Virus record (IMG/VR): IMGVR_UViG_3300017698_000025
Span: 1-42,239 of that record
Direction: 5' to 3' (one strand)
Source of the DNA: a virus
DNA length: 42,239 nt
The notes beneath the pieces are model-generated. The model was not told the DNA's origin and did not search any database. It saw only the letters and a program-made list of their open reading frames with translations. Positions 1,810 to 30,845 of this stretch are shown one piece after another. Within the stretch, counting starts at the first letter, position 1. The number at the start of each line of letters is the position of its first letter. The translations under genes and the position numbers were made by a program.

Positions 1810-1817
1810 GAGGAGAC

Positions 1818-2657
1818 ATGAAAACGTCTGCACTCGGAACGTCATTCATCGCCGCGCACGAGGGGGTCGTCCTTAAGGCGTATCCCGACCCGGCTACAGG
1901 TGGGGACCCGTGGACCATCGGCGTGGGTCATACATCATTGGCCGGCTTGCCTATGGTGGTGCCCGGTATGACCATCACGCGAGGGCAGGCGTTTGAGATT
2001 CTTGCGCGCGATCTTGGGACGTTCGAGGTTGCCGTGAGAACCGCCGTGCGAGTTCCCCTGACACAGAACGAATTCGATGCGCTGGTGTCGTTCACGTTCA
2101 ACGTCGGCGGTGGGAACCTTCGGAGGTCGACGCTGCTGAGAAAACTTAACGCCGGTGACAAGGCTGGAGCCGCTGCCGAGTCCATGAAATGGAACAAGGC
2201 CGGGAAGCCCCCGAGTGTGATGGCTGGGCTAACCCGGCGCCGCGCCGAAGAGAAATCGCTGTTTCTCCATGGCGACTATGCAGGGGTCACGACCGATATC
2301 CGCGTTCCTGACCCCCGTGCACTTCTGAAGCGTGGATCTACCGGTAAGGACGTTTCAGATCTCCAGACGAAACTGAAGAAGCTTGGATACAACATAACCG
2401 TTGACGGTGCGTTCGGCGGGGAGACAGAGGACGCCGTGAACCATTTCCAGGTTTCGCGAGGTCTGACAGTGGACGGGAAGGTTGGTAAGGCGACGAAGGC
2501 GGCTCTCGCCGAAGCGCTGGACAAGCCTGCTGACGCCGATGAAAACCCGCAGGAACCAGTCGAGCCCAAGGTCACCGAGGGCACCAAAGGAACGATGGTC
2601 GGCGCCGCTCTCGTCGGCCTCGGGACGTGGATCGCGCACGCGCTAGGGTGGTTGTGA
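1818..2657 (+). CDS. Endolysin: GH24 (T4/lambda-type) lysozyme plus PG_binding_1 domain plus C-terminal hydrophobic helix
   Basis: AGGAGGAG RBS then ATG at 1818. FIAAHEGVVLKAYPD...WTIGVGHT is the GH24 catalytic motif. GSTGKDVSDLQTKLKKLGYNITVDGAFGGETEDAVNHFQ matches a peptidoglycan-binding repeat. The last 20 aa (MVGAALVGLGTWIAHALGWL) are hydrophobic. Confidence 0.9.
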   Translation: MKTSALGTSFIAAHEGVVLKAYPDPATGGDPWTIGVGHTSLAGLPMVVPGMTITRGQAFEILARDLGTFEVAVRTAVRVPLTQNEFDALVSFTFNVGGGNLRRSTLLRKLNAGDKAGAAAESMKWNKAGKPPSVMAGLTRRRAEEKSLFLHGDYAGVTTDIRVPDPRALLKRGSTGKDVSDLQTKLKKLGYNITVDGAFGGETEDAVNHFQVSRGLTVDGKVGKATKAALAEALDKPADADENPQEPVEPKVTEGTKGTMVGAALVGLGTWIAHALGWL

Positions 2658-3598: not shown

Positions 3599-3784
3599 TT
3601 ATTCATTCGGCTCTGCGCTGATTGGACTATCGTATTCCCACTCGATAAGCTCATCCCCTGTCGACTCCATTATAATGTCCATGGCCTTCGCCTTCAACAT
3701 GGCTTCGTCGCGAGAGGACGCGGTCACGTATCCCCAAGCTCGCCCGGTGATGCTAAATAGCACTGCATACTCTTTCTGCTCCAT
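3599..3784 (-). CDS. Hypothetical protein
   Basis: 61 aa. The ATG overlaps the RecT stop (GTGATGG context). Last gene of the leftward recombination operon. Confidence 0.55.
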   Translation of the reverse strand: MEQKEYAVLFSITGRAWGYVTASSRDEAMLKAKAMDIIMESTGDELIEWEYDSPISAEPNE

Positions 3785-4647
3785 CACATCACGTCCTCGT
3801 AATCAGCGTCTTCCGGCTCGGGGCCGTCGCTGTCCACGCCGTAGTCGTTCGGCTCCGCATCCGGGGTCTCATCCACCGGCTCGGCCGGTGTCGTGTCCTC
3901 AATCGCCTGCTCGATGCGCTTCTTCGGCCGGCCACGCTTCGCAGGCGCGGGTTCCTCGGTCGCGTCGATCACCGGGCCAGCGCCTTCCTCGGGGCTCCAC
4001 AGCGGCTCGTCACGCTCCAGAACTTCCGACAGGCCGTCCCGGTCCGTGGACTGCGGCAGGTACTTCGATAGGCGACGCAGGACCGTCTTGCGGGCCATCT
4101 CCGACCACCACGTTTGCCACGGGCCGGCGTTCTTTGCCCGGCTGACGTTGCGGACTTCCTCGACTTCCTCGACGGACATCACCTCACGCTGAACGGAGCC
4201 GTCCTTCAGGTGCGCCACCGCATACACGGCGATGGGCTTGCCGCGCTTCTGGAGCGTCGGACGATGTACGATCCGCTCGCTATCGCCCAGCTCATATGTG
4301 AAGTCGTCGCCCTCGTAGACGACGTGCGCCGCGATGGTCGAAAGTTCTCCGGAGTTGCGGACCTTCTTCAGAACGCCAGCCACCATCGGCATGTACTGGA
4401 CCTGCTTGCCGAACACGACCAGCGCGGCCTCGCGACCGTCCGGCAGAAGCCCGTCCTGAGCCGCACGGATGCACGACTGGAATAGCGACGTGCGGTCAGC
4501 CTGAAGCAGGGCCGGCGCCTGCTGGATTGCCGTGATGGCGACGCGCTGGAACTTCTCCACGCTGATGTGCGGCGGGAGAGCGGCCGTGAACTGCGGCGTC
4601 ATCTGTTCGAGGGAGTTCTTGACCTGGGCGACTAGTTCTCTGGACAT
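3784..4647 (-). CDS. recT: RecT-family single-strand annealing recombinase
   Basis: Start at MSRELVAQ (ATG at 4647) with a GAGG RBS, 8 nt after the upstream stop. Family-typical motifs: LPPHISVEKFQRVAITAIQQ, DGREAALVVFG, VVYEGDDFTY, AVYAVAHLKDG, GPWQTWWSEMARKTVLRRLSKYLP. Acidic C-terminal tail. Confidence 0.9.
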   Translation of the reverse strand: MSRELVAQVKNSLEQMTPQFTAALPPHISVEKFQRVAITAIQQAPALLQADRTSLFQSCIRAAQDGLLPDGREAALVVFGKQVQYMPMVAGVLKKVRNSGELSTIAAHVVYEGDDFTYELGDSERIVHRPTLQKRGKPIAVYAVAHLKDGSVQREVMSVEEVEEVRNVSRAKNAGPWQTWWSEMARKTVLRRLSKYLPQSTDRDGLSEVLERDEPLWSPEEGAGPVIDATEEPAPAKRGRPKKRIEQAIEDTTPAEPVDETPDAEPNDYGVDSDGPEPEDADYEDVM

Positions 4648-4654
4648 GTGTGCC

Positions 4655-4843
4655 TCACTGGTTGGTGGATTCGAGGGCGGAGAGTAGAACATCGGTAGCG
4701 CGGACGGCCTCGACGGCTATCTCCACAAGCGTCAGTTCGTCAGTCTCAGGCGACGCCACGAGAGGGGCAAAGACATGCGTCGCGATGTACTCGCGCTTGG
4801 TGAGGCCGGTCGGGAACGCGCATTCGTCTCCAAGCTTGCTCAT
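4655..4843 (-). CDS. Hypothetical protein
   Basis: 62-aa ORF fitting tightly between neighbouring leftward genes. Confidence 0.5.
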   Translation of the reverse strand: MSKLGDECAFPTGLTKREYIATHVFAPLVASPETDELTLVEIAVEAVRATDVLLSALESTNQ

Positions 4844-4852: not shown

Positions 4853-5056
4853 TCACTGGTTTCCGTGGTTGATATCTGCGCGGACGAATGCGCCCTGACG
4901 CAGCAGGTTCAGGATCGTGTTCAGTTTCATCGACACGACGAACGACGGGTGACACGGCCGGCCGTGCAGCATGACGTATTTCTGCCGGGTCACGTCCTCG
5001 ATCAGAAATGATGGGTCCCGGTACGGCTGGCCGAGTTTGTATTTTCGGGGTCTCAC
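4853..5056 (-). CDS. Hypothetical protein
   Basis: 67 aa. The GTG start overlaps the exonuclease stop (GTGA). Confidence 0.45.
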   Translation of the reverse strand: MRPRKYKLGQPYRDPSFLIEDVTRQKYVMLHGRPCHPSFVVSMKLNTILNLLRQGAFVRADINHGNQ

Positions 5057-5973
5057 AGATTGGCCTTCTTCTGCGTAATCCGCATGTTCCGGTACGCCTT
5101 CCGAGTGTACGACACTTCGGTCTCTGCCACGGTGCCAGCGCTGATCCGGAACCCGGTCGTCTCGGCCTTTGCGCAGTCACCGACCATCGTCAGGAGTTCG
5201 GCCGACGCGGCCTTCTTCTCTGACTCGGCGGAGCGCGCCACGGCAGCGGCGGCCTCATACTGGCGGCATAGTTCCTCCGCGCGGTTGCTGGTCCGGAGAT
5301 CCTGAAACGTGTCGGGCGTGCTGTCCACGTATAGCCGCCGCACTGCGTCCGCGTCACGCGAGAAATCAGGCTCCGGCGCGAAACCTGCGTCAACGGATTT
5401 CCAGAACGCTTCGATGCGCTGGTTGATTGCTGCTCCTATGTCACGGTCACGCCCTCGGATAAACACCCGAGGCGCGTTCCCGCCGATCAGAACGCCGATG
5501 GCTCCCCATGCGCGGTCGGACACCTCCAGCTGGTGCTGCAACTGGAACTCGATGTGCGTCGGTGCCTCGCCTTCCTCCTCGTCGTCGATCCATGCTCGTT
5601 TGAACTGGATGAAATCGACGTTCTTGATCTCCAGAATGCCAGGACCGCGAACAGGGCACGTCACGCTGAAATCGAAGCTGGCGCCCATGCGTGTGACCGT
5701 CGAGTGCCGCATGTACTCCTTCAACGGCTCGCACTTCCACCCGTTGTCCTCCGCGATGCCGGCCGCGATCACCGGCTCCAGCCGCTTACCCCAGACCATG
5801 CGCTCGTTATCGGCAACGTGGATCTGCTGCCTGTCGCGCTTGGCGTGCCACAGTTCGAACTGCGTGACATACGGGCTGGCGTTGAACAGCGCGGCCGACT
5901 CCGTGCTCGTGATGTCGTGCGTGCGGAGTTCGAGCCACTGCTGTTCGGTCAGGTATGGGATGGTGATGGGCAT
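5053..5973 (-). CDS. YqaJ / lambda-Exo-type PD-(D/E)XK recombination exonuclease
   Basis: Start at MPITIPYLTEQQW (ATG at 5973) with a GAGGA RBS. Motifs: TSTESAALF..SPYVTQFELW, GASFDF, GILEIKNV (E-x-K). Paired with RecT in the same operon. Confidence 0.85.
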   Translation of the reverse strand: MPITIPYLTEQQWLELRTHDITSTESAALFNASPYVTQFELWHAKRDRQQIHVADNERMVWGKRLEPVIAAGIAEDNGWKCEPLKEYMRHSTVTRMGASFDFSVTCPVRGPGILEIKNVDFIQFKRAWIDDEEEGEAPTHIEFQLQHQLEVSDRAWGAIGVLIGGNAPRVFIRGRDRDIGAAINQRIEAFWKSVDAGFAPEPDFSRDADAVRRLYVDSTPDTFQDLRTSNRAEELCRQYEAAAAVARSAESEKKAASAELLTMVGDCAKAETTGFRISAGTVAETEVSYTRKAYRNMRITQKKANL

Positions 5974-5993: not shown

Positions 5994-6027
5994 GTCCCCA
6001 ATATACGGACGACGGAAAATCAGTCAA
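5994..6027 (-). promoter_or_regulatory. Leftward sigma70-like promoter with a 17-bp palindromic operator over the -10 (recombination operon)
   Basis: The minus strand reads TTGACT(6027-6022)-N16-TATATT(6005-6000). Operator GTCCGTATATTGGGGAC lies at 6010-5994. The start codon of the first gene is at 5973. Confidence 0.7.
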
Positions 6028-6094: not shown

Positions 6095-6316
6095 ATGAGA
6101 TCACCGGCAGACATCGTCATCGAGACATGGGGCACCGTGCGCGCTACGGCACGTCGCCTCGGGTACTCGAAATCATACGTTCACAGCTGGCAAACACGCC
6201 GGCAGGGGGAGCGCGTCGGGTGCATCCCGCAAGAGGCAATCGACCGGGCGCTGACTGCCGCGCGCGAGGACGGAATCAAGCTGACGCTGGAGCAGCTGCA
6301 TTATGGAGAGGTATGA
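6095..6316 (+). CDS. Cro/YdaS-like helix-turn-helix regulator
   Basis: 73 aa. First ATG downstream of the predicted transcript start, with AGAGAGAGG upstream. HTH segment TVRATARRLGYSKSYVHSWQ. Confidence 0.7.
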   Translation: MRSPADIVIETWGTVRATARRLGYSKSYVHSWQTRRQGERVGCIPQEAIDRALTAAREDGIKLTLEQLHYGEV

Positions 6317-6531
6317 TGGGGTTGTTTGATGGGATTACGGGGCCTTTCTGGGGGCATGAGAACCTTCAGAACCGGTATGAACTGGATCGTCAGGCTCAAC
6401 TGTATGCCCAGCCTCAGATATGGCAAAGCTACACGCCACCCGCACGGAGCCGCCTGCACAACCTTCGCTCCTACCGGGCGCGCATCATCCTCCACTCCAA
6501 CCCATCAACCCGAGTCAGGCGCCAGACATGA
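6313..6531 (+). CDS. Hypothetical protein
   Basis: 72 aa. ATGA overlaps at both ends (with the Cro-like stop and with the next start) suggest translational coupling. No recognisable motif. Confidence 0.45.
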   Translation: MMGLFDGITGPFWGHENLQNRYELDRQAQLYAQPQIWQSYTPPARSRLHNLRSYRARIILHSNPSTRVRRQT

Positions 6532-6845
6532 TCGCTTCATGCCCATGCTGCGGGCAGGCCGTTTCAGAGGCCATCCCGCTTGAACAGCTAGCAACGAGCG
6601 TATCTGGGCGCGTGCGGCTGGCGATCATGGACACCCTGATCAAGAACATCGGGAAGTGGACGACTTCAAGCCGCTTGGTTCAGGCTGTCTACCAAGACGC
6701 AAACGAAGAACCCGAGTACGCGGATAATACCATGCGCGTGACCATCCACCATATGCGCCCCATCATAAGGCAGTATGGCTGGGAGATCGTCGCTGTGAGA
6801 GGCGACGGGAAGGGCTACCAACTGCGTCCGGTCAGGGACGCGTGA
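6528..6845 (+). CDS. Standalone OmpR/PhoB-type winged-helix DNA-binding protein with an N-terminal CPCC motif
   Basis: Starts MIASCPCCGQ. The C-terminal part NTMRVTIHHMRPIIRQYGWEIVAVRGDGKGYQLRP matches the Trans_reg_C pattern (RV.ih.lR.k......I.tvrg.GY.L). Confidence 0.7.
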   Translation: MIASCPCCGQAVSEAIPLEQLATSVSGRVRLAIMDTLIKNIGKWTTSSRLVQAVYQDANEEPEYADNTMRVTIHHMRPIIRQYGWEIVAVRGDGKGYQLRPVRDA

Positions 6846-7156
6846 TGGCCCACTTTACCGCGATGGAATGGGAAATCGTAGCCTTCATGTCTGCAAGATA
6901 TGACCGGTGGTGTCGCGGTGATAAGATTGCGGCCCATCTATACCCAGAGGACCCACCGGAGACCGCAAGGACGGTGATCCGTGTCATGGTCCATCGAATA
7001 CGCCAGAAGATCGGCGTACTCGGGTATGAAATCCTGTCAGAGCGTGGATCCAACTCGCGCGGCTACAAACTGCGTCCGATCAGGAGGGATGATGAAACTT
7101 CGACCGTATCAGGCGCGCGACGTGGAGAGGATACGACAGGAGTTCAGGCACACTAG
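6845..7156 (+). CDS. Standalone OmpR/PhoB-type winged-helix DNA-binding protein (paralogue of 6528..6845)
   Basis: TARTVIRVMVHRIRQKIGVLGYEILSERGSNSRGYKLRP follows the same Trans_reg_C pattern. GTGATG overlap with the upstream stop. Confidence 0.7.
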   Translation: MAHFTAMEWEIVAFMSARYDRWCRGDKIAAHLYPEDPPETARTVIRVMVHRIRQKIGVLGYEILSERGSNSRGYKLRPIRRDDETSTVSGARRGEDTTGVQAH

Positions 7157-8609
7157 GCGCGTTCTCTACACCCTTCCGACCGGTGGCGGGAAGACCGTCA
7201 CGTTCAGCGACATCTGCCGCTGCGTCGTGGCCAAGGGAAACCGCGTCTACATCACCGCGCACCGTCGCCAGATCGTCAACCAGATCTCCGACGCGCTCGC
7301 TATGTTCGGCGTCCAGCACGGGCTGCTGCTTCCGGGCCACAGGATCACGTCTGACCGCGTTCAGGTCGGCATGGTCCAGACCATCGCCAGGAGGCTGCAC
7401 CTGCTGCCCGAGCCGAACATGCTGATCGTCGATGAGGCGCACCACGCTCCGGCCGGGTCGTGGAAGAAACTCTCGGACGAATGGGAGAAGGCACGCCACC
7501 TCGGCGTGACGGCCACCCCTGAACGGCTCGACGGCAAACCCCTCGGGGACTGCTACGACTCCCTGCTGATCGGGCCGTCAACACGCGACCTGATCGACGA
7601 TGGATACCTCTGCAACTTCGATTACTACTCACCTCCGGTGCAGGCCGACCTTGACGGGCTCGGAACGCGCATGGGCGACTTCAAATCTGAGGAACTGGAG
7701 GCCGCGATGGACCGGCCGACCGTCACCGGAGATGCCGTCGCGCACTATGCGAAGCTGGTCAATGGCGCGCCAGCCATCGCGTTCTGTGTGACGATCAAAC
7801 ACGCACAGCACGTGGCGGCATCGTTTCAGGCGGCCGGGTTTCGCTCGACGCACATTGACGGCGGCATGGACGAAAACACGCGGGCGCGGATCTTCTCCGA
7901 TCTGGCGGCTGGGCGCATCCAGGTTCTCACGTGCGCCGAACTGATCTCAGAGGGCGTCGACATCCCGGCTGTGGCGGCGGCGATCCTGCTGCGTCGCACG
8001 AAGTCCCTCACGATGTACCTCCAGCAGGTTGGGCGTGCTCTCAGGCCGGTCTACGCGGACGGGTTCGACCGTGACATGCAGTGCGGCCGCCTGTCTTCCA
8101 TCGCGGCGTCTGACAAGCCCCGTGCGTTCATCCTTGACCACGTCGGAAATTCGAAGATCCACGACGGGCCGGCTTTCCCCAGAAACTGGACACTAGACGG
8201 TAAGCGCGACGACGGGTCGCTTGAGACAGTCACCTGCAAGCGCTGCTTTCGGACATGGGAGCGCGGTGAACAGCGCGAATGCGGCGACGACAGCTGTCCG
8301 TTGCGTGGCCGGGCTGCCTCCACTGCTGATGGCCGACCGGCGCCTGAGATCGTAGACGGGTGGTTGGAACTTCAGTCACGCGATCCGCTCGCATGGGCCG
8401 GAGGGATTGACATCATCCGGGCAACGGGCGCCGAATGGCACGCTTTATTGCAGCGGGCGGGAGGGAACGCGGAATGCCTCAAACAGATCGAGAAGCTACG
8501 CGGGTACAAGCGCGGGTGGCACCTGCACGTCTTGCGGGACAGGCAGAAAAAAGAAAAGGAAAGGGCCACTCAGGATGAACTTCGGCGGATCGGATTTCCG
8601 ACCTTTTGA
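7089..8609 (+). CDS. Superfamily-2 DEAD/DEAH-box helicase with a C-terminal Cys-rich (zinc-ribbon-like) region
   Basis: AGGAGGG RBS. Motif I LPTGGGKT, motif II IVDEAHH, motif III GVTATP, motif VI QQVGRALR. VTCKRCFRTWERGEQRECGDDSCPL lies near the C-terminus. The start could be 7089 or 7092. Confidence 0.88.
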   Translation: MMKLRPYQARDVERIRQEFRHTRRVLYTLPTGGGKTVTFSDICRCVVAKGNRVYITAHRRQIVNQISDALAMFGVQHGLLLPGHRITSDRVQVGMVQTIARRLHLLPEPNMLIVDEAHHAPAGSWKKLSDEWEKARHLGVTATPERLDGKPLGDCYDSLLIGPSTRDLIDDGYLCNFDYYSPPVQADLDGLGTRMGDFKSEELEAAMDRPTVTGDAVAHYAKLVNGAPAIAFCVTIKHAQHVAASFQAAGFRSTHIDGGMDENTRARIFSDLAAGRIQVLTCAELISEGVDIPAVAAAILLRRTKSLTMYLQQVGRALRPVYADGFDRDMQCGRLSSIAASDKPRAFILDHVGNSKIHDGPAFPRNWTLDGKRDDGSLETVTCKRCFRTWERGEQRECGDDSCPLRGRAASTADGRPAPEIVDGWLELQSRDPLAWAGGIDIIRATGAEWHALLQRAGGNAECLKQIEKLRGYKRGWHLHVLRDRQKKEKERATQDELRRIGFPTF

Positions 8610-9240
8610 GTCGGACGAGGACGTTCTGGCCTATCACTCGCGCAAGGCGTCACGCGCTGCCATGCGAGCCCGCAAGTGGGGCGCCCAGGCTGGACGATGC
8701 GCATACTGCCGCGCTCCGATGAAGTGGGCTGCGTCACGGCGGCACGGGAATGCTCGACTGACGAAACTCTGCATGACGGAGGACCACGTCCACCCGACCG
8801 GGCGCGGCGGTCAGAACGTCGAGAGCAACATCGTCCTGTCGTGTCACTGGTGCAACGCGCGCAAGGGGATGATGACGGGTGCCGAATGGGTCGCCGTACT
8901 CTGGGAGGAAAAGGACATGGGCGCACGCGAAACGCCGCTGATGAAGGAAATTCTCGTGGCGCTGTGGAGGGAGTTTCCAGACGGCCTCTGGTATCGGCGG
9001 AACGTCGGATCAGCCAGGGCAGGCGACCGGTTCGTCCGGTTTGGCATGGCCGGGCAGGCGGATATCCCGGGGATCCTCGATGGTCGCGCGATAGAGGTTG
9101 AGGTAAAGCCGGACACCGGCCGGCAGAGCCAAGATCAGAAGCACTGGCAGGCCGCCGTCGAGCGGGCCGGTGGCGTGTATCTCCTGGTGCGCAGCGTCGA
9201 TGACGCGATTGACGGCGTTCGGAAGGCGGTGGGGAGGTGA
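8575..9240 (+). CDS. HNH endonuclease fused to a VRR-NUC (PD-(D/E)XK) nuclease domain
   Basis: N-terminal half CAYCRAP...TEDHVHPTGRGGQNVESNIVLSCHWCNARKG is an HNH motif. C-terminal half WYRRNVGSA..FVRFGMAGQADIPGIL.GRAIEVEVKPDTGRQSQDQKHWQAAVERAGGVYLLVRS follows the VRR-NUC pattern. No stop codon between the two halves. Confidence 0.8.
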   Translation: MNFGGSDFRPFESDEDVLAYHSRKASRAAMRARKWGAQAGRCAYCRAPMKWAASRRHGNARLTKLCMTEDHVHPTGRGGQNVESNIVLSCHWCNARKGMMTGAEWVAVLWEEKDMGARETPLMKEILVALWREFPDGLWYRRNVGSARAGDRFVRFGMAGQADIPGILDGRAIEVEVKPDTGRQSQDQKHWQAAVERAGGVYLLVRSVDDAIDGVRKAVGR

Positions 9241-11867
9241 CTGATCTCGTCTCAATGTTCCTGGACGCCATGCAATCGTCAGGCGTTCTAGGCTGCTCAG
9301 ACCCCATCGCAGACGGCAAGATCCACCGGTTTACCGTAGCTGGAGACAGGCCGAAATCCGATAATGGGTGGTACGTCCTGTTTCTGGACGGCGACTTCGC
9401 GGGCGGTGCCTTCGGGTCGTGGAAACTCAGCGTTTCCGAAACGTGGCACGCTCGCGAGGGCGGCAAGAAGATCACCACGGCGCAGCGCAAACGGGTGCGC
9501 GATCTGGCAGAGATGTCGGAGGCCGAGCGCCAGCGCATCGCTGCTGAGGTGGCCGTCAAGGCCGCTGCGATCTGGAAGGCAGCCTCCCCGTCCACGGCAG
9601 AACACGCCTACGCCGCGCGCAAGCGGATCACGCCGCTCGGGACCCGCATCGACAGGCACGGAAATCTGGTGGTGCCGGTCAGGAATTCGGATGGAGAACT
9701 TCGGTCGCTCCAACTGATCAAGCCGGACGGGAACAAGCTGTTTCTCACAGGCGGCGAGATCGGAGGCAACTGGTCGTCGGTCGGCCGCGCTGGCGACACG
9801 ATGCTGATCTGCGAGGGATACGCTACGGCGTGCACACTACATGAGGCGTGCGGGCTGGGCGTGTTCATCGCGTTCAACAACGGAAACCTGCCGGTCGTGG
9901 CCGAGCGCGTGCGCAGGAAGTACCCGGACGCCGCCCTGATCGTATGCGGCGACAACGACCACAAGACCGAAGGAAACCCCGGCGCCGGCTCGATGCGTGA
10001 GGCGGCCGCGATCTGCAAGGGGCACACGCTGCTGCCGGAGGGCATCAAGGGCACCGACTTCAACGACATGGCCGCCGAGATCGGCATAGACGCGGTCAAT
10101 GCCGCGATCAGAACGAAGCTGGACGCCATCCGCGAAGAACCGCCAGCACCCCAGCCGGGGACTGTTCAGGCGCCAGAAGATCTGGAGGACGACGACGCAA
10201 CGCGCGTGGGTGCTCCACAGCCGCTCGGATACGACAAGGGCGTGTACTACTACTATTCCATGGAGACGCGGCAGGTGGAACAGCTGACACCGGCTGAGCA
10301 CACGCCGCGCTCGCTCATGCACCTCGCCAGCGAGGCTTACTTCTGGTCGCGCACATCGTTCCAATCGAAGAACGGCGTCAACTACAATGACGCGGCCGAC
10401 TGGATGATGCACCGCTGTCGCCAGAAGGGCATCTTCAACATCGACCGCATCCGGGGTCGTGGTGCGTGGCTGGAGGGCAAGAAGGCCATCGTCCATTTTG
10501 GCGACCGTCTCGTTGTGGACGGCAAGACCTGCAACCTGTCGGATTTCAGCGGAGGGCCGTTCCTCTATCAGGCCGCCACGCCTCTCGTCTACGAAACACC
10601 GGAGCCGCTTTCCAAGCGCGAGGCGCATCGGCTTCAGGAGATCTGCGAACTCATCAACTGGCGCGATCCGCTCCACGCCAAGCTGCTGGCCGGCTGGATC
10701 GCCCTCGCCCCTATCTGCGGCGCACTGAACTGGAGGGCGTCGATCTGGATTACCGGGGCGTCCGGCTCCGGCAAGACGTGGATCATGACGCACATCATCA
10801 AGGGCGCCCTCCGCGACGTGTCGCTGATGGTCTCCAGCGGGACCACGGAAGCCGCTCTTCGCCAGAAGCTGGACAGCGACGCGCTCCCGGTGGTCTTCGA
10901 CGAGGCCGAAGGCGAGAAGATGGTGGACGCCCAGCGCATGGACGCCGTACTCCAGCTGGTCCGTCAGTCGTCGTCCGAGCAGGACGCGGCGATCCTGAAG
11001 GGGTCACAGAACCAGAAGGGCGCGAAGATGTACCGGATGCGCTCGTGCTTCGCGTTCATGTCGATCAACGTCGGTCTCGTGGAGCGAGCGGACGAAAGCC
11101 GCATAACGGTGCTCCCACTCGAAAGCGCGGACCGATCCGACCCAGAACAATCCGCCATCGCGGACGACAATTTCGAGGAACTGGAGCGGCTGGTGCGTGA
11201 GACGATTACGCCTGATTTCTCGTCTCGTCTGATTATGCGCTCGGCCCGGCTTATCCCGGTGATCCGCAAGAACCACGACACGTTTTCCCGTGCTGTCGGG
11301 TCCGTGTTCGGGGACCGGCGTGCCGGCGATCAGCTGGGCGCCCTTCTGGCCGGGGCGTACTCGCTCACCTCAGAGGCAGAGATCACCTACGACGCGGCGC
11401 GCGCGTGGATCGAGACGCACTCGAACCTGAAGGCGTCCACTGTGGCCGATGAGCAGACGGACGAGGAACGGTTCCTGTCTCACGTGAAACAGGCCATGGT
11501 GCGCGTCCAGGGTGTCAATGGGCACGGCGTGCTAGACCGACAGATTGGCGAGTTGATGGACGCCGCTCGAACCGTCGAGGGTGGGTACGGGATGGTCTAC
11601 ACCGAGGCGCGACAGACGCTCATGCGCTGCGGTATCCGGTATCAGTCGGAGGACGACGGCGGCGAGGGGTTTTGGATTTCGCACTCGTCAAAGGGACTGA
11701 AGAACCGTATCCTGAAGGACGCGCCGGCCTGGGGCCGAAAGCCCGCGCTGACGCTGAGCCGGATACGTGGCGCCGTGAACAGCGACAACCCGATCCGGTT
11801 CGCTGGCGACAAGGAGCGCGCGACGTTCCTGCCGTGGTCCGTGGTCAAGGGAGACGATGATGCCTGA
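9237..11867 (+). CDS. Primase-helicase: COG4643-like N-terminal domain, Toprim primase and P-loop helicase (P4-alpha/DUF927-like)
   Basis: 876 aa. GKIHRF..DNGWYVLFLDG..GAFGSW; Toprim motifs LICEGYATA and CGDNDH; Walker A ITGASGSGKT; Walker B VVFDEAE. The GTG start overlaps the upstream TGA. An alternative ATG is at 9255. Confidence 0.88.
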   Translation: MTDLVSMFLDAMQSSGVLGCSDPIADGKIHRFTVAGDRPKSDNGWYVLFLDGDFAGGAFGSWKLSVSETWHAREGGKKITTAQRKRVRDLAEMSEAERQRIAAEVAVKAAAIWKAASPSTAEHAYAARKRITPLGTRIDRHGNLVVPVRNSDGELRSLQLIKPDGNKLFLTGGEIGGNWSSVGRAGDTMLICEGYATACTLHEACGLGVFIAFNNGNLPVVAERVRRKYPDAALIVCGDNDHKTEGNPGAGSMREAAAICKGHTLLPEGIKGTDFNDMAAEIGIDAVNAAIRTKLDAIREEPPAPQPGTVQAPEDLEDDDATRVGAPQPLGYDKGVYYYYSMETRQVEQLTPAEHTPRSLMHLASEAYFWSRTSFQSKNGVNYNDAADWMMHRCRQKGIFNIDRIRGRGAWLEGKKAIVHFGDRLVVDGKTCNLSDFSGGPFLYQAATPLVYETPEPLSKREAHRLQEICELINWRDPLHAKLLAGWIALAPICGALNWRASIWITGASGSGKTWIMTHIIKGALRDVSLMVSSGTTEAALRQKLDSDALPVVFDEAEGEKMVDAQRMDAVLQLVRQSSSEQDAAILKGSQNQKGAKMYRMRSCFAFMSINVGLVERADESRITVLPLESADRSDPEQSAIADDNFEELERLVRETITPDFSSRLIMRSARLIPVIRKNHDTFSRAVGSVFGDRRAGDQLGALLAGAYSLTSEAEITYDAARAWIETHSNLKASTVADEQTDEERFLSHVKQAMVRVQGVNGHGVLDRQIGELMDAARTVEGGYGMVYTEARQTLMRCGIRYQSEDDGGEGFWISHSSKGLKNRILKDAPAWGRKPALTLSRIRGAVNSDNPIRFAGDKERATFLPWSVVKGDDDA

Positions 11868-13848: not shown

Positions 13849-14030
13849 TCCTGCTCCCCCTCCGGCTCGACTTCCGGGGCGGTGGAGAGGACGGCGTTGA
13901 TTTTCTGCCGCGCCATCGTGGTTGTGATGTCCCGTTCGCCGGGAAGTTCGGCCCAATCGCACGTCGCTTTCGCAAGTGCCCATGCCCACTCGTCCGTCGC
14001 CTCTGCCGGCACTGTCACTGTCTTACCCAT
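13845..14030 (-). CDS. Hypothetical protein
   Basis: 61 aa. The stop overlaps the HNH-AP2 start (ATGA). Confidence 0.55.
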   Translation of the reverse strand: MGKTVTVPAEATDEWAWALAKATCDWAELPGERDITTTMARQKINAVLSTAPEVEPEGEQE

Positions 14031-14520
14031 CGTTCCCGTCCTCCACGAGGGTGAGGTCGGAGAGGGTGCGCGGCGAACCCCCAGGATAGAAATCGAACCG
14101 ATGGTGATATTTCAGGTAGGCTTGTTGTCCATCAGCACTGATTGCATCGACGATCCCGCCGTAAGAGGCGTGCTGGTGGTTTACAGGCTTAGTAAAAACA
14201 AGGCTCCCCACCTTGATCTCCTGCGGCTTGCGGGAGACGAGGGTGGAGGCGGCGAGGACTTCGTGCCTGAACGCGTAGTCGCCATCGAATGTCAGGGGGC
14301 GCACGCGAATTGATTTACCTATGCCGACATGCTCCACGATGAAGCGAATGTCCCACACGTCGCCTTCGCGCACTTCGGTATTCACGCTCATCACAACCCT
14401 CACTCTCTCTTTCGGCCAAATCCCTAGCGTCCCTTTATGCCGGACAATTACGTGGTCGTCAAGCAGGCGGTAAACCTCTCCGGGGCCGTCCGGGGTGGAT
14501 ACCGGGTCGCAGGGTTTCAT
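14023..14520 (-). CDS. Hypothetical protein (beta-rich)
   Basis: 165-aa ORF, coupled to its neighbours by overlaps. Confidence 0.65.
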   Translation of the reverse strand: MKPCDPVSTPDGPGEVYRLLDDHVIVRHKGTLGIWPKERVRVVMSVNTEVREGDVWDIRFIVEHVGIGKSIRVRPLTFDGDYAFRHEVLAASTLVSRKPQEIKVGSLVFTKPVNHQHASYGGIVDAISADGQQAYLKYHHRFDFYPGGSPRTLSDLTLVEDGNDG

Positions 14521-17435: not shown

Positions 17436-17657
17436 TCACTCTCCCTTCAGGCCATAGAGGTACGCATTCTTGCGATACAGGGCCGTCGCCTCGGAGGCTG
17501 CCTTTTCGGGGGTCTCTCCCCACCCGCAGTTGACGTTGCACACGCCACCATCCGCCGCGTCAGCCCATGCCCGAGCGAAGTACCTGGCGACCCCATCGTC
17601 GCCATTCGGGTAACGCTCGCAGCTCGTCCGCGCTACGTATTCGCTCATCGTGTTCAT
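17436..17657 (-). CDS. Hypothetical protein (first gene of the leftward small-ORF operon)
   Basis: 73 aa. GAAGGGGA RBS. About 35 nt downstream of the promoter/operator at 17695-17730. Confidence 0.6.
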   Translation of the reverse strand: MNTMSEYVARTSCERYPNGDDGVARYFARAWADAADGGVCNVNCGWGETPEKAASEATALYRKNAYLYGLKGE

Positions 17658-17694
17658 CTCAGGTCCCCTTCTTTCGGCCTGCTTCCGTCTCTAT

Positions 17695-17730
17695 GTCCCC
17701 AATATACGGACGTGCACGCACCCCTGTCAA
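17695..17730 (-). promoter_or_regulatory. Leftward sigma70-like promoter with a 17-bp palindromic operator over the -10 (small-ORF operon)
   Basis: The minus strand reads TTGACA(17730-17725)-N18-TATATT(17706-17701). Operator GTCCGTATATTGGGGAC (17711-17695) is identical to the one at 5994-6010. Confidence 0.7.
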
Positions 17731-17811
17731 CGCCTTTTTAAATCGCCGCGCATTTTTTTCGAGCGCTCCAGGCTGCGTGCACACACGGCTTCCACCCCGA
17801 ACCGGTGGCGG

Positions 17812-19475: not shown

Positions 19476-19735
19476 CCGACCTGACCCGCAACCTGGAAAT
19501 CGCGGACACGTTCGCCGAACGCTTCGGCAGGCAATCCTGCCGCGTCGAGAAAATCGATGGCTCATCCATGCCTGACGCCGTCATGGTCGCATATCACGAC
19601 GCCATCACAGGACTCGGCATGACCATCTGGGTGTTCGGAAAGCAGCAGTTCAAGGGGTTCGTCGAGCAGACCGGCCACGACTTGTGCTACGGAAACGTGG
19701 CCGAGCGGTTTGCGCAGTTCTGTGAGGTGGATTGA
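19472..19735 (+). CDS. Hypothetical protein
   Basis: 87 aa. ATGA overlap upstream and TGATG overlap downstream. Confidence 0.6.
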   Translation: MTDLTRNLEIADTFAERFGRQSCRVEKIDGSSMPDAVMVAYHDAITGLGMTIWVFGKQQFKGFVEQTGHDLCYGNVAERFAQFCEVD

Positions 19736-20127
19736 TGGCAGGCCGTCCATCCACATACACCGAGAAGCTGTCGGACGAGATCTGCGGACGCATCACGAAC
19801 GGCGAAAGCCTCAGCGCTATCTGTCGTGAGCCGGCGATGCCGGCGCCGTCTTCGGTGTTCAAGTGGTTGCGAGAGCATCCTTCATTCTCGGAGAGATACG
19901 CGATTGCTCGCCAAGAGCAGGCCGACACCTTGGCCGATCAGATCACTGCAATCGCAGACGATCTCACAGGAGACCCGGCACGCGACAGGCTTCGCATCGA
20001 CGCCCGCAAATGGATCGCCTCGAAGCTTAAGCCGAAAGCTTACGGCGACAAGGTCGATATGACACACAGCGGCGGAGATACTCCGATCCAGCACGAGATC
20101 GAAGTTCGTATCGTGAAGGCGACGTGA
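19735..20127 (+). CDS. terS: Terminase small subunit (HTH-type)
   Basis: MAGRPSTYTEKLSDEICGRITNGESLSAICREPAMPAPSSVFKWLREHPSFSERYAIARQEQADTLADQI...RIDARKWIASKLKPKAYGDK matches the widespread GRPskYt...ic..i..G.sl..ic......P....v..Wl......f...Ya.Are small-terminase pattern. Confidence 0.8.
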   Translation: MAGRPSTYTEKLSDEICGRITNGESLSAICREPAMPAPSSVFKWLREHPSFSERYAIARQEQADTLADQITAIADDLTGDPARDRLRIDARKWIASKLKPKAYGDKVDMTHSGGDTPIQHEIEVRIVKAT

Positions 20128-20354: not shown

Positions 20355-20510
20355 ATGAACATTGGTTCGAACGTCAAGGTCACGGGTCGTCAGAACACTT
20401 TCGAGGTGGTGCGCCTGTACGAGATTGCCGGGATCCCCTCGGCTAAGATCGTCGATTGGAAGAATAAGCTATGCTTGTGCCATCGGGTGGAGGACCTTCG
20501 CGTCATCTAA
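20355..20510 (+). CDS. Hypothetical small protein
   Basis: 51 aa starting MNIGSNVKV. GGGAGA RBS. First ORF after the promoter. Overlaps the annotated terL start by 40 nt. Confidence 0.5.
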   Translation: MNIGSNVKVTGRQNTFEVVRLYEIAGIPSAKIVDWKNKLCLCHRVEDLRVI

Positions 20511-21853
20511 AAACCATCTCCCTCGCCGTTCCTGAAAAGCTGGAGCCGCTGCTCTACCCGAAGCGCTACAAGGGCGCCTACGGTGGACGCGGCGGCGCCA
20601 AGTCGCACTTCTTCGCCGAGCAGATCGTCATCCGGTGCTTCCAGCGCAAAACGCGCGTGGTGTGCATCCGTGAGGTTCAGAACAGCCTCAAGGAATCGTC
20701 GCGCCAGCTGATCATCGACAAGATCTTCAAGCTCGGGCTTGAGGATCAGTTCGAGATCCTGGAAGCCGAGATCAGGTGCCGAGCCAACGGCTCTCTGATC
20801 ATCTTCAAGGGGATGCAGTCCTACAACGCGGCGAATATCAAGTCGCTTGAGGGCTTCGATATCGCGTGGGTGGAAGAGGCCCAGACGATGTCGCGCACGT
20901 CGCTCATGATGCTGCGCCCAACCATCCGCAAACCCGGCAGTGAGCTGTGGTTCTCGTGGAACCCGCGTTACAAGACCGACCCTGTCGATGAGTTCTTCCG
21001 CAAGTCTCCCTCGCCAGAAGCCATATCCATCGCCATCAACTGGCGCGACAACCCGTGGTTCCCGGACGAACTGCGCCAGGACATGGAGCACGACTTCACG
21101 ACCGACCCAGACACCGCCGAGCACGTATGGGAGGGCGCCTATGGTGCGTCCGAGGGCGCCATCCTCGCGAAGTGGATCAACCGGGCCGAGCGTGATGGCC
21201 GCATCAGCGACGACATCGAGTTCGACCCGTTCGGCGCCCCCGTCGAGATCAGCGCTGACATCGGGTTCCGGGATACCGCGTCGTGGTGGTTCTGGCAGCC
21301 TCGCATCAACGGGTTCGCAGTGCTGCGCAACCGTCGCGATCGCGGCATGGACGCCGAGGATTGGGTCAAGGAGATCGAGGCCGAGTTGAGGCGCATGGGC
21401 GTGCGGCCGGAAAAGCTGGGGCGGATCTGGTTGCCGCAGGACGCCAAGGCGAAGACGTTCGGGACGAAGCACACGAGTGTGGAGCGGTTCATAGCGAAGT
21501 TTGGGCACGCTAAGGTGCGCATCGTGCCACCGTCCCGTAAGGCGGACCAGATCAGCGCGGCGCGCGCGATGGTGCCCCTCTGCCGGTTCGCCAAGACGGC
21601 ATGTGACGAGGGGCTGGACGGCCTGCGCGCATGGGAGTTCGAATACGACGATGAGAACGACGTGTTCAGCCGTGAGCCGAAGCACAATTGGGCCTCGCAC
21701 GACGGCGACGGGTTCGCCTACGGGTGTCAGGTGCTGAGACAACGTGAATTGACGATTGCCGAAGAGCCTGACAGAATGCTGGCTGTTGGTCCGCTGAACA
21801 CGGTGACGTTGAACGACCTGTGGGATGCGCAGAAAGTGAGGAAGCGGAGATGA
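20471..21853 (+). CDS. terL: Terminase large subunit (PBSX / Terminase_3-like)
   Basis: 460 aa. Walker-A-like RYKGAYGGRGGAKS, Walker B/coupling GFDIAWVEEAQ, and nuclease-half motifs (WLPQDA, ASHDGDGFAY). The exact start is uncertain. Confidence 0.9.
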   Translation: MLVPSGGGPSRHLKTISLAVPEKLEPLLYPKRYKGAYGGRGGAKSHFFAEQIVIRCFQRKTRVVCIREVQNSLKESSRQLIIDKIFKLGLEDQFEILEAEIRCRANGSLIIFKGMQSYNAANIKSLEGFDIAWVEEAQTMSRTSLMMLRPTIRKPGSELWFSWNPRYKTDPVDEFFRKSPSPEAISIAINWRDNPWFPDELRQDMEHDFTTDPDTAEHVWEGAYGASEGAILAKWINRAERDGRISDDIEFDPFGAPVEISADIGFRDTASWWFWQPRINGFAVLRNRRDRGMDAEDWVKEIEAELRRMGVRPEKLGRIWLPQDAKAKTFGTKHTSVERFIAKFGHAKVRIVPPSRKADQISAARAMVPLCRFAKTACDEGLDGLRAWEFEYDDENDVFSREPKHNWASHDGDGFAYGCQVLRQRELTIAEEPDRMLAVGPLNTVTLNDLWDAQKVRKRR

Positions 21854-25360: not shown

Positions 25361-27595
25361 ATGGCGACAGACAAAGCCACGGCCACATCGGACACGCCGG
25401 ACCGCGCGCCTGCGTCTGGAGAGGGCGCGCACAAATACTGGTGCGCCGAACTCAAGGCCGCTGAAAAGGCGAAGCGTCATCGTCGGTTCCTGAAGGATGG
25501 CCAGTCCATCGTCCGTCGCTACGAGGACGAAAAGGCCACCAACACGAACGACGGGTATGAGGACGCTGGTGCGTCCGAGTTCAATATCCTGTGGTCCAAC
25601 ACACAGACGATGAAGCCGGCCGTTTACGAGCGGCCTCCGAAGGCTGTCGTCGAGCGGCGCTACCCGGATCGTGACCCCATCGGCCGCACGGCGTCGGTGA
25701 TCCTGGAGCGTGCGACGGAATACACCGTCGAGATGGGCACGTACCACTCTGCCATCGACAGCGCGTTGACGGATTGGCTGCTGGCCGGTCGCGGTCAGGT
25801 ATGGGTTCGGTATGAGCCTGTGTTTCAGCCGATGCCGTCTCAGGTAACGCAGTCGCCGGCATCGGACGAGCGCCAGGAAGGCACCGACGAGCGCGGCGAG
25901 GACGATCCTCAGGAAGAGGTCGTGGACGAGAGCGCGTGCCTGGACTACGTGCACTGGCAGGACTATCTGGAAAGCCCGTCACGGACGCAGTCTGAAGTCT
26001 GGTGGCGTGCTCGCCGCGTGTACATGAGCCGGCGCGAACTGAAGAAGCGGTTTGGCGAAGAGATCGGGAAGAAGGTCGACCTGAAGTGGGAGCCGGAGGA
26101 GGCTCGCAGCATCGGGGACGACGTTCCGGAGAGTGAGAAGGACCAGTTCAAGCGGGCGCCTGTCTGGGAGATCTGGGACAAGACCGAGCGCCGCGTGACG
26201 TGGATCTGCGAAAGCTACCCGTCGCCGCTCGACAGCATGGAAGACCCGTTGCAGCTGGACGGGTTCTGGCCGTGTCCGAATCCGCTGTGCGCGAGCGTGG
26301 CGAACAGCAGCACGATCCCGACTCCGTTCTTCTCGTATTATCGTCGTCAGGCGCAGGAACTTGACGACCTGACGGCGCGTATTCAGGCGCTCACGTCGTC
26401 GCTGAAGGCGGCTGGCTGCTACGATGCCAGTATCCCGGCCCTAAGCCGGCTGCTCGATGAAGGCGTGGATAACAAGCTGATCCCGGTCGAGAGTTGGGCG
26501 GCGTTCTCTGAAAAGGGCGGTCTTGACGGCGCAATCTCGATGCTGCCGATCAAGGACGTTGCGGCGGTCGTGCTCCAGCTGTACGAGGCGCGCGAGCAGA
26601 CGAAGCAGGTGATTTACGAGATCACCGGTATTTCCGACATCGTGCGCGGTCAGGGAGATGGCGGGGCGGCGAAGACCGCTACCGAACAGCGGATAAAGGG
26701 GCGGTTTGCGACCCTGCGGCTGAGCGACCTCCAGCGGGACGTGGAGCGGTTCGCGCGCGATGCGCTGCGTCTGCTCGCCGAGGTGATCGCTGAGCATTTC
26801 GAGCCGAAGACGTTGTTCCTAATGTCCGGCTATGAGCAGTACGCGAAGTCGCAGTTCGCCCCGAAGCCGCCCCAGCTGCCTGAGCCGCCTCCCGGTACGC
26901 CGCCTGAGGTTATCCAGCAGGTAAAGCAGCAGGCCGAGCAGCAGGCCGCGATGATGGCGCAGCAGGAGGCCATGCAGACGTTTGAAGCGGCTGTGGCGCT
27001 TCTGCGTGAGGACAAGAACCGTGGGTTCCGGATCGACATCGACACCGACACGATGGTCGCGCCGGACCGTGAGGAAATGCAGCGCGGACGGACCGAAGCT
27101 GTCGCGGCGCTGGGCACGTTCATGAAGGAGGCGGTTCCGGCTGGGGCACAGTTCCCGACGCTGGTTCCGATCCTTGGCAAGTTCATGCTGTTCCTGGTGC
27201 GTGGTATGCCGGCCGCGCGAGAGATCGAGGGCGCGATTGAGCAGTTCGTTGACGATCAGGAAATGTCCGAACGTTCGGGTGGAAATCAAAAGCCGCCTGA
27301 CCCCGAGATGGTCAAGGCACAGGCGGAAATTCAGAAGCAGCAGATGGAAAGCCAACGCGCCCAGCAGGAAATGATGGCTGAGGGCGAGCGGATGAAGGCC
27401 GAACTTGCGCAGAAAGCGCAGGAAGCGCAGATGGATTTCGCGTTGAAGCAGGGCGAGTTCCAGCGTAAGATGGCCGAGATGGACCGTGAGGAAGAAATCA
27501 AGCTGCGCGAGCACCAGATGAAGATGGCCGAGATCACGATGAAGGACTCGGCTGATGAGCGGTCCGCTGCTCGTAAGAAAGACAGCGCGAAATGA
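25361..27595 (+). CDS. Portal protein with a long charged C-terminal helical (barrel-like) extension
   Basis: 744 aa. Size and position between terminase and scaffold fit a portal. The C-terminal ~110 aa are a Q/E/K/M-rich helix (QKQQMESQRAQQEMMAEGERMKAELAQKAQEAQMDF...). Confidence 0.8.
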   Translation: MATDKATATSDTPDRAPASGEGAHKYWCAELKAAEKAKRHRRFLKDGQSIVRRYEDEKATNTNDGYEDAGASEFNILWSNTQTMKPAVYERPPKAVVERRYPDRDPIGRTASVILERATEYTVEMGTYHSAIDSALTDWLLAGRGQVWVRYEPVFQPMPSQVTQSPASDERQEGTDERGEDDPQEEVVDESACLDYVHWQDYLESPSRTQSEVWWRARRVYMSRRELKKRFGEEIGKKVDLKWEPEEARSIGDDVPESEKDQFKRAPVWEIWDKTERRVTWICESYPSPLDSMEDPLQLDGFWPCPNPLCASVANSSTIPTPFFSYYRRQAQELDDLTARIQALTSSLKAAGCYDASIPALSRLLDEGVDNKLIPVESWAAFSEKGGLDGAISMLPIKDVAAVVLQLYEAREQTKQVIYEITGISDIVRGQGDGGAAKTATEQRIKGRFATLRLSDLQRDVERFARDALRLLAEVIAEHFEPKTLFLMSGYEQYAKSQFAPKPPQLPEPPPGTPPEVIQQVKQQAEQQAAMMAQQEAMQTFEAAVALLREDKNRGFRIDIDTDTMVAPDREEMQRGRTEAVAALGTFMKEAVPAGAQFPTLVPILGKFMLFLVRGMPAAREIEGAIEQFVDDQEMSERSGGNQKPPDPEMVKAQAEIQKQQMESQRAQQEMMAEGERMKAELAQKAQEAQMDFALKQGEFQRKMAEMDREEEIKLREHQMKMAEITMKDSADERSAARKKDSAK

Positions 27596-29846: not shown

Positions 29847-30845
29847 ATGGTGTCCCCCAATCTCTCGGAGATGGTCACGACCACTCTCCGCAATCGTTCC
29901 GGCGAACTCGCCGACAACGTCACCCGCAACAATGCGGTGCTCACTCGCCTGAACTCGCGCGGCAACCGGAAGACCTTCTCGGGTGGCCGTACCATCGTTC
30001 AGGAGATGGAGTACGCGAACAACGGTACTTACAAGCGGTACTCGGGATATGAAGTCCTCGATATCGCGCCGTCGGACGTGTTCACCGCAGCCGAGTTCCC
30101 GATCCGACAGGCGGCCGAGGCCGTTTCCATCTCCGGTCTGGAAATGCTCCAGAACTCCGGCAAGGAAGCTGTGATCGACCTGCTTGAGTCGCGGATCAAG
30201 AACGCCCAGCACTCGTTCGCCAACGGCCTGTCCTACGACATCTATTCGGATGGCTCGGCGACTGCCCAGATGGGCGGCCTTCAGTTCCTCGTGGCGGCCT
30301 CGCCGACTTCGGGAACTGTCGGCGGCATCGACCGGGCGACCTGGGAGTTCTGGCAGAACCAGGTTTACGACTCGATCACTGACGGTGGCGCCGCGTTCAG
30401 CGCTGCGAATGCGTATTCGCAGATGCTGGCGCTCTACACGCAGTGCTCGCGCGGTCGTGACCAGCCGGACCTGATCCTCGCATCGGACGGCGCATGGCGT
30501 GCCTACAACGAGTCGCTGAACGCCCGTGTGCGGATCACCGACGAGTCGTCGGACGTGGCGAAGTCCGGGTTCATGTCGCTGAAGTTCATGAACGCCGATG
30601 TCGTGTTTGACGGCGGCTTCCAGGGCTTCTCGTCTGATCCGATCCCGGTCGGTGGCGTGCCCTCGGGCGTGAACTTCTACTTCCTCAACACGAAGTACAT
30701 CTACTACCGCCCGCACCGTGACCGGAACATGGTCCCGCTTGGTGATCGCCACGCGGTGAACCAGGACGCCATGGTCAAGCTGATCGCTTGGGCTGGTAAC
30801 ATGACCATGTCCAACGCCTTCCTTCAGGGCGTGCTCACCACGTAA
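29847..30845 (+). CDS. Major capsid protein (HK97 fold; epsilon15/BPP-1-like by size and order)
   Basis: 332 aa. Sits after the scaffold gene. GAGGA RBS. Followed by a stable hairpin. Confidence 0.8.
   Translation: MVSPNLSEMVTTTLRNRSGELADNVTRNNAVLTRLNSRGNRKTFSGGRTIVQEMEYANNGTYKRYSGYEVLDIAPSDVFTAAEFPIRQAAEAVSISGLEMLQNSGKEAVIDLLESRIKNAQHSFANGLSYDIYSDGSATAQMGGLQFLVAASPTSGTVGGIDRATWEFWQNQVYDSITDGGAAFSAANAYSQMLALYTQCSRGRDQPDLILASDGAWRAYNESLNARVRITDESSDVAKSGFMSLKFMNADVVFDGGFQGFSSDPIPVGGVPSGVNFYFLNTKYIYYRPHRDRNMVPLGDRHAVNQDAMVKLIAWAGNMTMSNAFLQGVLTT

Follow-up and report, generated by a model that had tools for sequence, protein, structure and literature searches.

A dyad centred on the -10 box of the strong sigma-70 promoters of an uncultured podovirus-like phage, a probable operator of its Cro-like protein

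The DNA analysed here, IMG/VR virus record IMGVR_UViG_3300017698_000025 (42,239 nucleotides over its full length, hereafter the window), carries a short inverted repeat, GTCC-N9-GGAC, at its strongest predicted promoters. Two leftward operons are headed by copies that are identical: cGTCCGTATATTGGGGAC was read directly on the minus strand at 6011..5994 and again at 17712..17695, 11,701 bp apart, confirming a match reported in an earlier note on this DNA. The identity extends over exactly 18 nt, with differing flanks (t/a upstream, g/a downstream). As had also been noticed, each copy sits on a TATATT -10 box behind a TTGAC -35 box, with TTGACA and an 18-nt spacer at one promoter (P3) and TTGACT and a 16-nt spacer at the other (P1). 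The stretches from the -35 box to the palindrome (gattttccgtc in one promoter, ggggtgcgtgcac in the other) have no similarity, indicating that the match between the two is limited to the functional elements and does not reflect a duplicated segment.

Scanning the whole window, we found GTCC-N9-GGAC six times where 1.45 occurrences are expected, a number reached in none of 100 dinucleotide shuffles and in none of 300 shuffles of a second set (mean 1.28). Four of the six have an A+T-rich core and lie on -10 hexamers (Table 1), which bears out the four copies, set against a chance expectation of order one, that had been counted previously. When the -35 box is included in the search (TTGAC-N12-14-GTCC-N9-GGAC), five sites are found against 0.02 expected, and no shuffle gets to five. 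A chance overlap of short palindromes with A+T-rich promoter cores would supply one or two occurrences of GTCC-N9-GGAC, and the copy at 29822 is probably of this kind, but as an explanation of the promoter sites it is effectively refuted by the joint pattern. Many palindromes scattered through coding sequence away from promoters would have argued against a regulatory element; the scan returned a single stray match, which agrees with the chance expectation for GTCC-N9-GGAC.

The fifth copy, absent from the earlier note, belongs to a weaker cassette, P3b, inside the operon headed by P3. It falls either within the open reading frame (ORF) 14520..14023 or shortly before an alternative ATG at 14391; this start has a ribosome-binding site, and codon-position G+C does not decide between a coding and an upstream location. 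The -10 box of P3b is poor, with no T at -7, and P3b is probably a weak internal promoter. The sixth dyad (29822-29838, plus strand, GGTCC-N7-GGACC) was rejected as a further operator, having neither a -35 nor a -10 box and arms that are followed by C. It occupies part of the 32 bp that precede the gene for the major capsid protein, where it overlaps the capsid Shine-Dalgarno sequence (GAGGA), and could be a chance match or a hairpin affecting capsid translation. An RNA-level role for the promoter dyads was also rejected: the dyad lies upstream of the predicted start and would stay untranscribed, and scans for tRNA genes and Rfam families gave no match.

The two highest sigma-70 scores in the window belong to P3 and P4. 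P1 heads a leftward recombination operon that encodes a RecE/YqaJ-like exonuclease, two small ORFs, RecT and one more ORF, while P2 heads a rightward cro-replication operon. P1 and P2 are arranged back to back, with their -35 boxes 4 bp apart and their operator centres 56 bp apart. P3 heads a leftward operon of small ORFs, with the first gene at 17657..17436 and an extent to about 12073, and P4 heads a 51-amino-acid ORF (20355..20510) followed by the large terminase, portal, capsid, tail and lysis genes. The earlier note had proposed that one regulator controls both leftward operons. The sequence supports this proposal and suggests that it was understated, with the element heading all four strong promoters and the weaker fifth.

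The four strong sites share one register: GTCC, one nucleotide, the -10 hexamer, two nucleotides, GGAC, and then a purine at the presumed start. The operator thus spans about -17 to -1 of its promoter, with arms at -17..-14 and -4..-1, and the shared register places the dyad centre on base -9 and makes the invariant A(-11) and T(-7) dyad partners. The -35 box stands at varying distances from the dyad (12, 13, 13 and 14 nt); it is thus relative to the -10 box, not the -35 box, that the dyad is fixed. Half-sites are uniform, all ten reading GGAC followed by a purine (GGACR) and the eight from the strong sites reading GTCCNYA, and the inner positions of the latter motif may be contacted too. GGGACR forms the downstream arm in four of the five operators. 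No extra operator copy with two or fewer mismatches adjoins any of the promoters, leaving one dyad per promoter.

Conservation from promoter to promoter is restricted to the -35 box, the -10 box and the arms, the spacers being unrelated, and this bears on an explanation that dispenses with a trans-acting factor. GTCC/GGAC could then be an extended promoter liked by host RNA polymerase, for example through a G-rich discriminator, or a remnant of promoter copying. A GGG directly after the -10 box at three of the four sites does resemble the GGGA discriminator, which stabilises open complexes, and P1 and P3 have their 18 identical bases. However, the conserved bases form a dyad (-17..-14 versus -4..-1), which is not a need of RNA polymerase, and unrelated spacers beside the arms argue against recent segment copies. 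Furthermore, in related phages (see below) the arms differ yet are uniform within each genome, as expected of a genome-specific binding protein and not of a shared polymerase preference. We regard this explanation as quite improbable.

Table 1. Promoters, operators and genes of the window (family scan, gene recognised in family scans of the window proteins).
Feature	Position	Strand	Description
Promoter P1	6000..6027	-	TTGACT (6027..6022), 16-nt spacer, TATATT (6005..6000); sigma-70 scan 10/12
Promoter P2	6032..6060	+	TTGACG, 17-nt spacer, TAATAT; sigma-70 scan 9/12
Promoter P3	17701..17730	-	TTGACA (17730..17725), 18-nt spacer, TATATT (17706..17701); sigma-70 scan 11/12
Promoter P4	20301..20329	+	TTGACA, 17-nt spacer, TATATT; sigma-70 scan 11/12
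Weaker cassette P3b	14429..14462	-	TTGACG-17-CATAAA; GTCC-GGCATAAAG-GGAC at 14445..14429
Putative operator O-P1	5994..6010	-	GTCC-G-TATATT-GG-GGAC; with the preceding c, the 18-nt exact match to O-P3
Putative operator O-P2	6050..6066	+	GTCC-A-TAATAT-GG-GGAC; 6-bp arms ACGTCC/GGACGT
Putative operator O-P3	17695..17711	-	GTCC-G-TATATT-GG-GGAC (cGTCC...GGACa)
Putative operator O-P4	20319..20335	+	GTCC-A-TATATT-AA-GGAC (tGTCC...GGACa); most divergent copy
Cro-like helix-turn-helix protein	6095..6316	+	73 amino acids; first gene of the P2 operon; recognition helix about YSKSYVHSW
OmpR-type winged-helix proteins (two, stand-alone)	6528..6845 and 6842..7156	+	P2 operon, between the cro-like gene and the helicase
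RecE/YqaJ-like exonuclease	5973..5053	-	Family scan
RecT	4692..3784	-	Family scan
ORF after RecT in the P1 operon	3787..3599	-	
Helicase	6981..8609	+	Family scan
Primase	9237..11867	+	Family scan
Sf6-type small terminase	19732..20127		Family scan
Large terminase	20471..21853	+	Family scan
Portal	25361..27595		Family scan
Major capsid protein	29847..30845		Family scan
Tail and ejection proteins			Family scan
Endolysin	1782..2657		Family scan
HNH endonucleases (two)			Family scan

The gene nearest to the paired promoters P1 and P2 on the rightward side encodes the Cro-like protein, starting 28 nt downstream of the P2 operator and diverging from the leftward recombination operon. A simple ORF list misses this gene, which is contained in frame in a longer spurious ORF. 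The best PDB sequence matches of the protein are Xfaso 1 Cro (3bd1, E=0.028), the related protein XPH1 and P22 Cro (E=0.6), all of them weak, and its Pfam helix-turn-helix matches are all sub-threshold. A profile built from eight homologues matches P22 Cro (1rzs) at E=0.0017, and six of the eight homologues match Pfam P22_Cro (PF14549) at E<=0.01, below the curated cut-off, the window protein itself not being among the six. Together these matches weakly support membership of the window protein in the P22_Cro family. A word-index protein search with the Cro-like protein found only itself, and tblastn of the Cro-like and winged-helix proteins against phages gave nothing useful.

Related phages were reached via homologues of the RecE-like exonuclease, and their contigs (among them L119, L123 to L127 and L129) were fetched. 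The closest view of the shared layout comes from L119, which is collinear with the window over primase, HNH endonuclease, helicase, exonuclease and RecT at about 55-69% amino-acid identity. Its Cro homologue (85 amino acids, 38% identical to the window protein, E=3e-13) is encoded by the first rightward gene. L119 is temperate: the gene for a 199-amino-acid HTH_3 repressor separates its divergent promoters from the exonuclease gene, an integrase gene follows that of RecT, and winged-helix genes are absent. At the positions matching its lysogeny genes (CI-type repressor and integrase, 8413-9012 and 11517-12707) the window has nothing. The L119 exonuclease promoter reads TTGACG-17-GATATT inside GTTG-A-GATATT-CC-CAAC, in the same register as in the window, and the dyads of this phage carry GATAAT or GATATT in that register. 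The CI/cro intergenic region of L119 also contains a second motif, TGTCGGGATAAWCGCA, as a direct repeat at 8286-8305 and 8379-8398 that is distinct from GTTG-N9-CAAC.

The same design recurs in the other relatives (Table 2). Those with a Cro homologue have cro first in the rightward unit in a layout as in the window, and the offset of the -10 hexamer is the same in the window, L119, L124-L126, L127 and L129, the last with two identical dyad copies on TTGACA/TTGACT-16 promoters. The arm motifs given for the relatives in Table 2 were picked after inspecting each locus and their shuffle statistics are optimistic; after correction for 256 possible arms, L119, L127, L129 and L123 are still significant. 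The arms track the recognition helix of Cro. L124 and L125 have an identical helix, L126 and Cobetia phage Carin1 have similar ones, and all four have GGTG/CAWC arms, while the window, L119 and L127 each combine a different helix with different arms; L119 and L129 are a partial exception, discussed below. In the cultured Limnohabitans phage DC33, which has a homologue of this Cro family, no dyad was identified.

Table 2. Recognition-helix stretch of the Cro protein, dyad, and observed versus expected number of dyads in the window and its relatives (counts for L124-L126 refer to the arm pattern GGTG-N9-CAWC).
Genome	Helix	Dyad	Observed / expected
Window	YSKSYVHSW	yGTCC-N9-GGACr	6 / 1.3
L119	RHASSVARW	cGTTG-N9-CAACg	4 / about 0.15
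L123	VDHSWVVRW	GGTGT-N7-ACACC	6 / 0.35
L124	LDHSSVARW	GTGGTGG-CAWWATC-SCAWCAC	7 / 1.0
L125	LDHSSVARW	GTGGTGG-CAWWATC-SCAWCAC	6 / 1.75
L126	LHHSSVVRW	GTGGTGG-CAWWATC-SCAWCAC	4 / 1.0
L127	KDRTTVYRW	GATGAGA-N3-TCTCATC	5 / 0.30
L129	IHKSWIWRW	CGTTGC-TAATATG-GCAACG	5 / 0.22
Cobetia phage Carin1 (L130)	TEHSRISRW	GTGGTG-N9-CAACAC	4 copies

Carin1 (PQ119497) is the closest cultured phage found with a homologue of this Cro family. Like the window it has a podovirus genome, of ~40 kb, in which cro (gp19) diverges directly from the exonuclease and RecT genes (gp20, gp21), no CI or integrase is annotated, and four dyads are present. It differs in its arms, in its replication genes (DnaC-like) and in the placing of two of its dyads, which overlap a -35-like TTGACG and not a -10 box; the record annotates nothing on regulation. 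Two of the Carin1 dyads lie in the cro/exonuclease intergenic region. The other two are identical 21-mers, gtGGTGCTGATTCGTCAACac, at 234-254 (before gp01, at the terminase end) and 6089-6109 (early leftward operon), a pair that mirrors the identical P1 and P3 operators of the window and in which the dyad overlaps the -35-like TTGACG. A CI-type HTH_3 repressor is found next to cro in L119, L123 and L126, accompanied by an integrase in L119 at least. In the window, family scans and tblastn searches detected no integrase, CI-type repressor or partition gene; specifically, tblastn found no CI homologue and there was no Pfam match to an HTH_3 or S24 peptidase domain. Since the window and Carin1 keep Cro and the operators in the absence of CI, the operators persist where Cro is the only candidate left. 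Both look like members of a temperate clade without lysogeny genes.

The behaviour of the arms among relatives also bears on a host-encoded repressor as the binder, with the phage promoters tuned to a host regulon. Dyads of 4-N9-4 form covering a -10 box are typical of host regulators too, LexA among them, and the window is a metagenome contig. Against this, the arms change together with a phage protein, Cro, among collinear relatives. Our literature search gave no host regulator with a GTCC-N9-GGAC box, nor, to our knowledge, is there one. A host repressor is a very improbable binder.

Besides the Cro-like protein, the earlier note had named winged-helix proteins as candidate regulators. Two such proteins are encoded in the P2 operon, immediately before the helicase and primase genes; they are paralogous (34% identical, about 105 amino acids each), lack a receiver domain and both pass the Pfam Trans_reg_C cut-off (27.1 bits for 6420..6845 and 28.9 bits for 6842..7156, versus 26.2). 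An 830-bp gene-free and A+T-richer stretch (17658-18493) adjoins P3. It contains nine copies of yTGGGACRAAA in both orientations at 18049-18426, a sixfold enrichment of GGGAC (9 versus 1.5 expected in the stretch). The array repeat and the downstream operator arm have GGGACR in common, a shared motif of 5-6 nt. The gene-free stretch also holds a 21-nt tandem pair at 17811-17852, GAGTTCATTTTTCAGACATCA and GAATTCATTTTTAAAACATCA, and has no tRNA or Rfam matches. For the array itself, an origin, a packaging site and a set of regulator sites are all conceivable.

On these grounds one or both winged-helix proteins might bind the dyads and the nine repeats alike, linking an origin-like array to promoter shut-off, in the manner of iteron-plasmid Rep proteins acting on both iterons and inverted-repeat operators. 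Several observations speak against it. First, the relatives keep the -10-centred dyad cassette without any winged-helix homologue, none being found in the related phages fetched (a word-index search with the second winged-helix protein also returned nothing), and their arms follow the Cro helix instead. Second, the upstream operator arms have GGAC only and not GGGAC, and nowhere in the array do two repeats form an inverted pair with N9 spacing. Lastly, OmpR/PhoB-type domains normally bind direct repeats, spaced ~10-11 bp apart, unlike the inverted repeat over 17 bp with N9 spacing that is found at the promoters. We consider it unlikely that the winged-helix proteins bind the dyads in this way, and similarly doubtful that any one phage protein, be it the winged-helix pair or Cro, occupies both the -10-centred dyads and the nine-copy array. 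If one did, it would tie the loading of an origin or packaging region to global silencing of the promoters used by host polymerase, giving a Rep/iteron-style circuit in a virulent podovirus that lost CI and integrase. Autoregulation by iteron-plasmid Rep proteins (F RepE, pPS10 RepA) is comparable in that GGGACR occurs both in a gene-free multi-copy array and in a promoter inverted repeat; however, no Rep homologue was found in the window, the shared motif is short and no iteron-like arrays of operator half-sites were seen in the relatives; this is a resemblance only. The array and the two winged-helix proteins could add a second layer of control. Of the two candidates proposed earlier, we favour the Cro-like protein over the winged-helix proteins because a Cro homologue is present in every relative with the cassette and its helix changes with the arms, while winged-helix genes are absent there.

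Our preferred reading is that the dyad yGTCC-N9-GGACr is the operator of a dimeric helix-turn-helix repressor of the phage, most likely its 73-amino-acid Cro-family protein, which we judge probable on the sequence comparisons above. From the same comparisons we infer Cro as the binder, repression as the result of binding, and the order of affinities given here. With one operator per strong sigma-70 promoter, centred on base -9, a dimer on its operator would occlude the -10 element as far as the start site and keep sigma region 2 out, giving steric repression. After infection, host RNA polymerase would use P1-P4 and all promoters would fire. The build-up of Cro would then lower transcription from P2 (autoregulation of its own operon), from P1 (RecE/RecT) and from P3 and P3b (small ORFs), the identical operators of P1 and P3 being expected to respond jointly. 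The P4 operator is the most divergent (TGTCC; AA in place of GG before GGAC) and may be the least sensitive, escaping repression longest, as would fit a structural operon. In the temperate relatives, the CI-type repressor would presumably act on the same sites.

Several points weigh against the assignment to Cro. The similarity of the window protein to known Cro proteins is weak (E=0.028 at best), with no Pfam family above cut-off, and a single-sequence AlphaFold model of the protein was unusable (predicted local distance difference test score, pLDDT, of 59.8). At 13 bp, the distance between arm centres exceeds the 10-11 bp typical of Cro operators of the lambda type. Repression at the promoter of the structural genes fits poorly with a lytic programme unless graded affinities are assumed. 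Among the relatives, which form a small and non-independent sample, the relation of helix to arms is not one to one, L119 and L129 having the outer arms GTTG/CAAC in common despite differing helices. In addition, the CI-type repressor of the temperate relatives would co-vary with the operators just as Cro does.

The arrangement is most similar to the lambdoid Cro/CI switches (lambda OR/OL; P22 Cro and c2; Xfaso 1 and Pfl 6 Cro), and on sequence grounds the cassette is most likely a further example of this well-known type, its design being real and common to related phages. In both, the rightward early operon opens with the gene of a small helix-turn-helix protein (Cro in the lambdoid phages, Cro-like in the window), which points away from a leftward recombination operon, and dyads of 17-18 bp overlap the early promoters (here -17..-1 of P1, P2 and P3). 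Next to cro, the temperate relatives L119, L123 and L126 encode a CI-type HTH_3 repressor, and related phages differ in operator specificity much as immunity groups do. The window differs from the lambdoid switches in having one operator per promoter in place of three adjacent ones (OR1-3, OL1-3), in centring the operator on the -10 hexamer with A(-11) and T(-7) as dyad partners, in placing copies over four or five promoters including the terminase/structural one, and in lacking a CI gene and integrase; the similarity of its protein to known Cro is weak.

Many dispersed operators under a single repressor are known from the C1 operators of bacteriophage P1, the gp71 sites of mycobacteriophage L5 and the KorA/KorC operators of IncP plasmid RK2, the last typically lying over the -10 box of strong sigma-70 promoters. 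These systems are alike in that one small repressor acting at dispersed operators co-regulates several transcription units, although their proteins are unrelated to the Cro-like protein of the window. The sites of bacteriophage P1 and L5 are moreover asymmetric and serve lysogenic silencing, unlike those of the window, which is apparently a virulent podovirus.

The window has the same 99 bases at both ends (exact direct repeat, 1-99 and 42141-42239), from which we conclude that it is a circularly assembled, complete genome of ~42.1 kb (about 42,140 bp). Its G+C content is ~61%, its gene set is podovirus-like, and its sequence is also present on Logan contigs from public runs SRR5917978 and SRR5917982. 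Megablast with 15-21 kb of the window found no close relatives among GenBank phages. A rightward unit at 18494-20291 (plus strand), made up of small ORFs and the Sf6-type small terminase gene, is preceded by no recognisable sigma-70 promoter or operator and may depend on an activator or begin within the repeat region.

Wider searches for the element gave little. The exact 17-mer has no match in IMG/VR, and 80 IMG/VR relatives of the large terminase, at about 60-65% identity, have neither the dyad nor comparable promoters, which makes the terminase a poor marker for the regulatory module. Locus searches based on the primase in IMG/VR, Joint Genome Institute (JGI) metagenomes and GTDB genomes found only relatives at <=38% identity. 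An IMG/VR scan for TTGAC-N12-14-GTCC-N-TA-N3-T-NN-GGAC returned 25 single matches, not above chance. Among unrelated IMG/VR contigs (L084, L085/L088/L090/L106, L087, L089, L100, L101 and L102), single consensus-like promoters have their -10 box framed by TGTCC-N7-GGACA, and in L102 two GTCC-N9-GGAC dyads stand 22 bp from each other; the frequency of the T...A extension of the dyad among these contigs is curious. Searches of the literature gave nothing relevant on a GTCC/GGAC operator, on Xfaso 1 Cro operators, on Carin1 regulation or on this cassette.

The cassette leaves the current understanding of phage regulation unchanged. What it provides is a wiring diagram for an uncultured phage, in which a single operator type and a single likely repressor serve four or five sigma-70 promoters. 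At least nine related phages keep this architecture, with arms and Cro helix changing together. Such a series would be useful for a recognition code relating helix to operator and for defining immunity groups, and is a possible source of compact repressor/promoter pairs that are orthogonal to one another, each with a 17-bp operator embedded in a consensus promoter. With the window and Carin1 representing a Cro-only state and L119 the temperate state, the clade may also help the study of how virulent phages arise from temperate ones.

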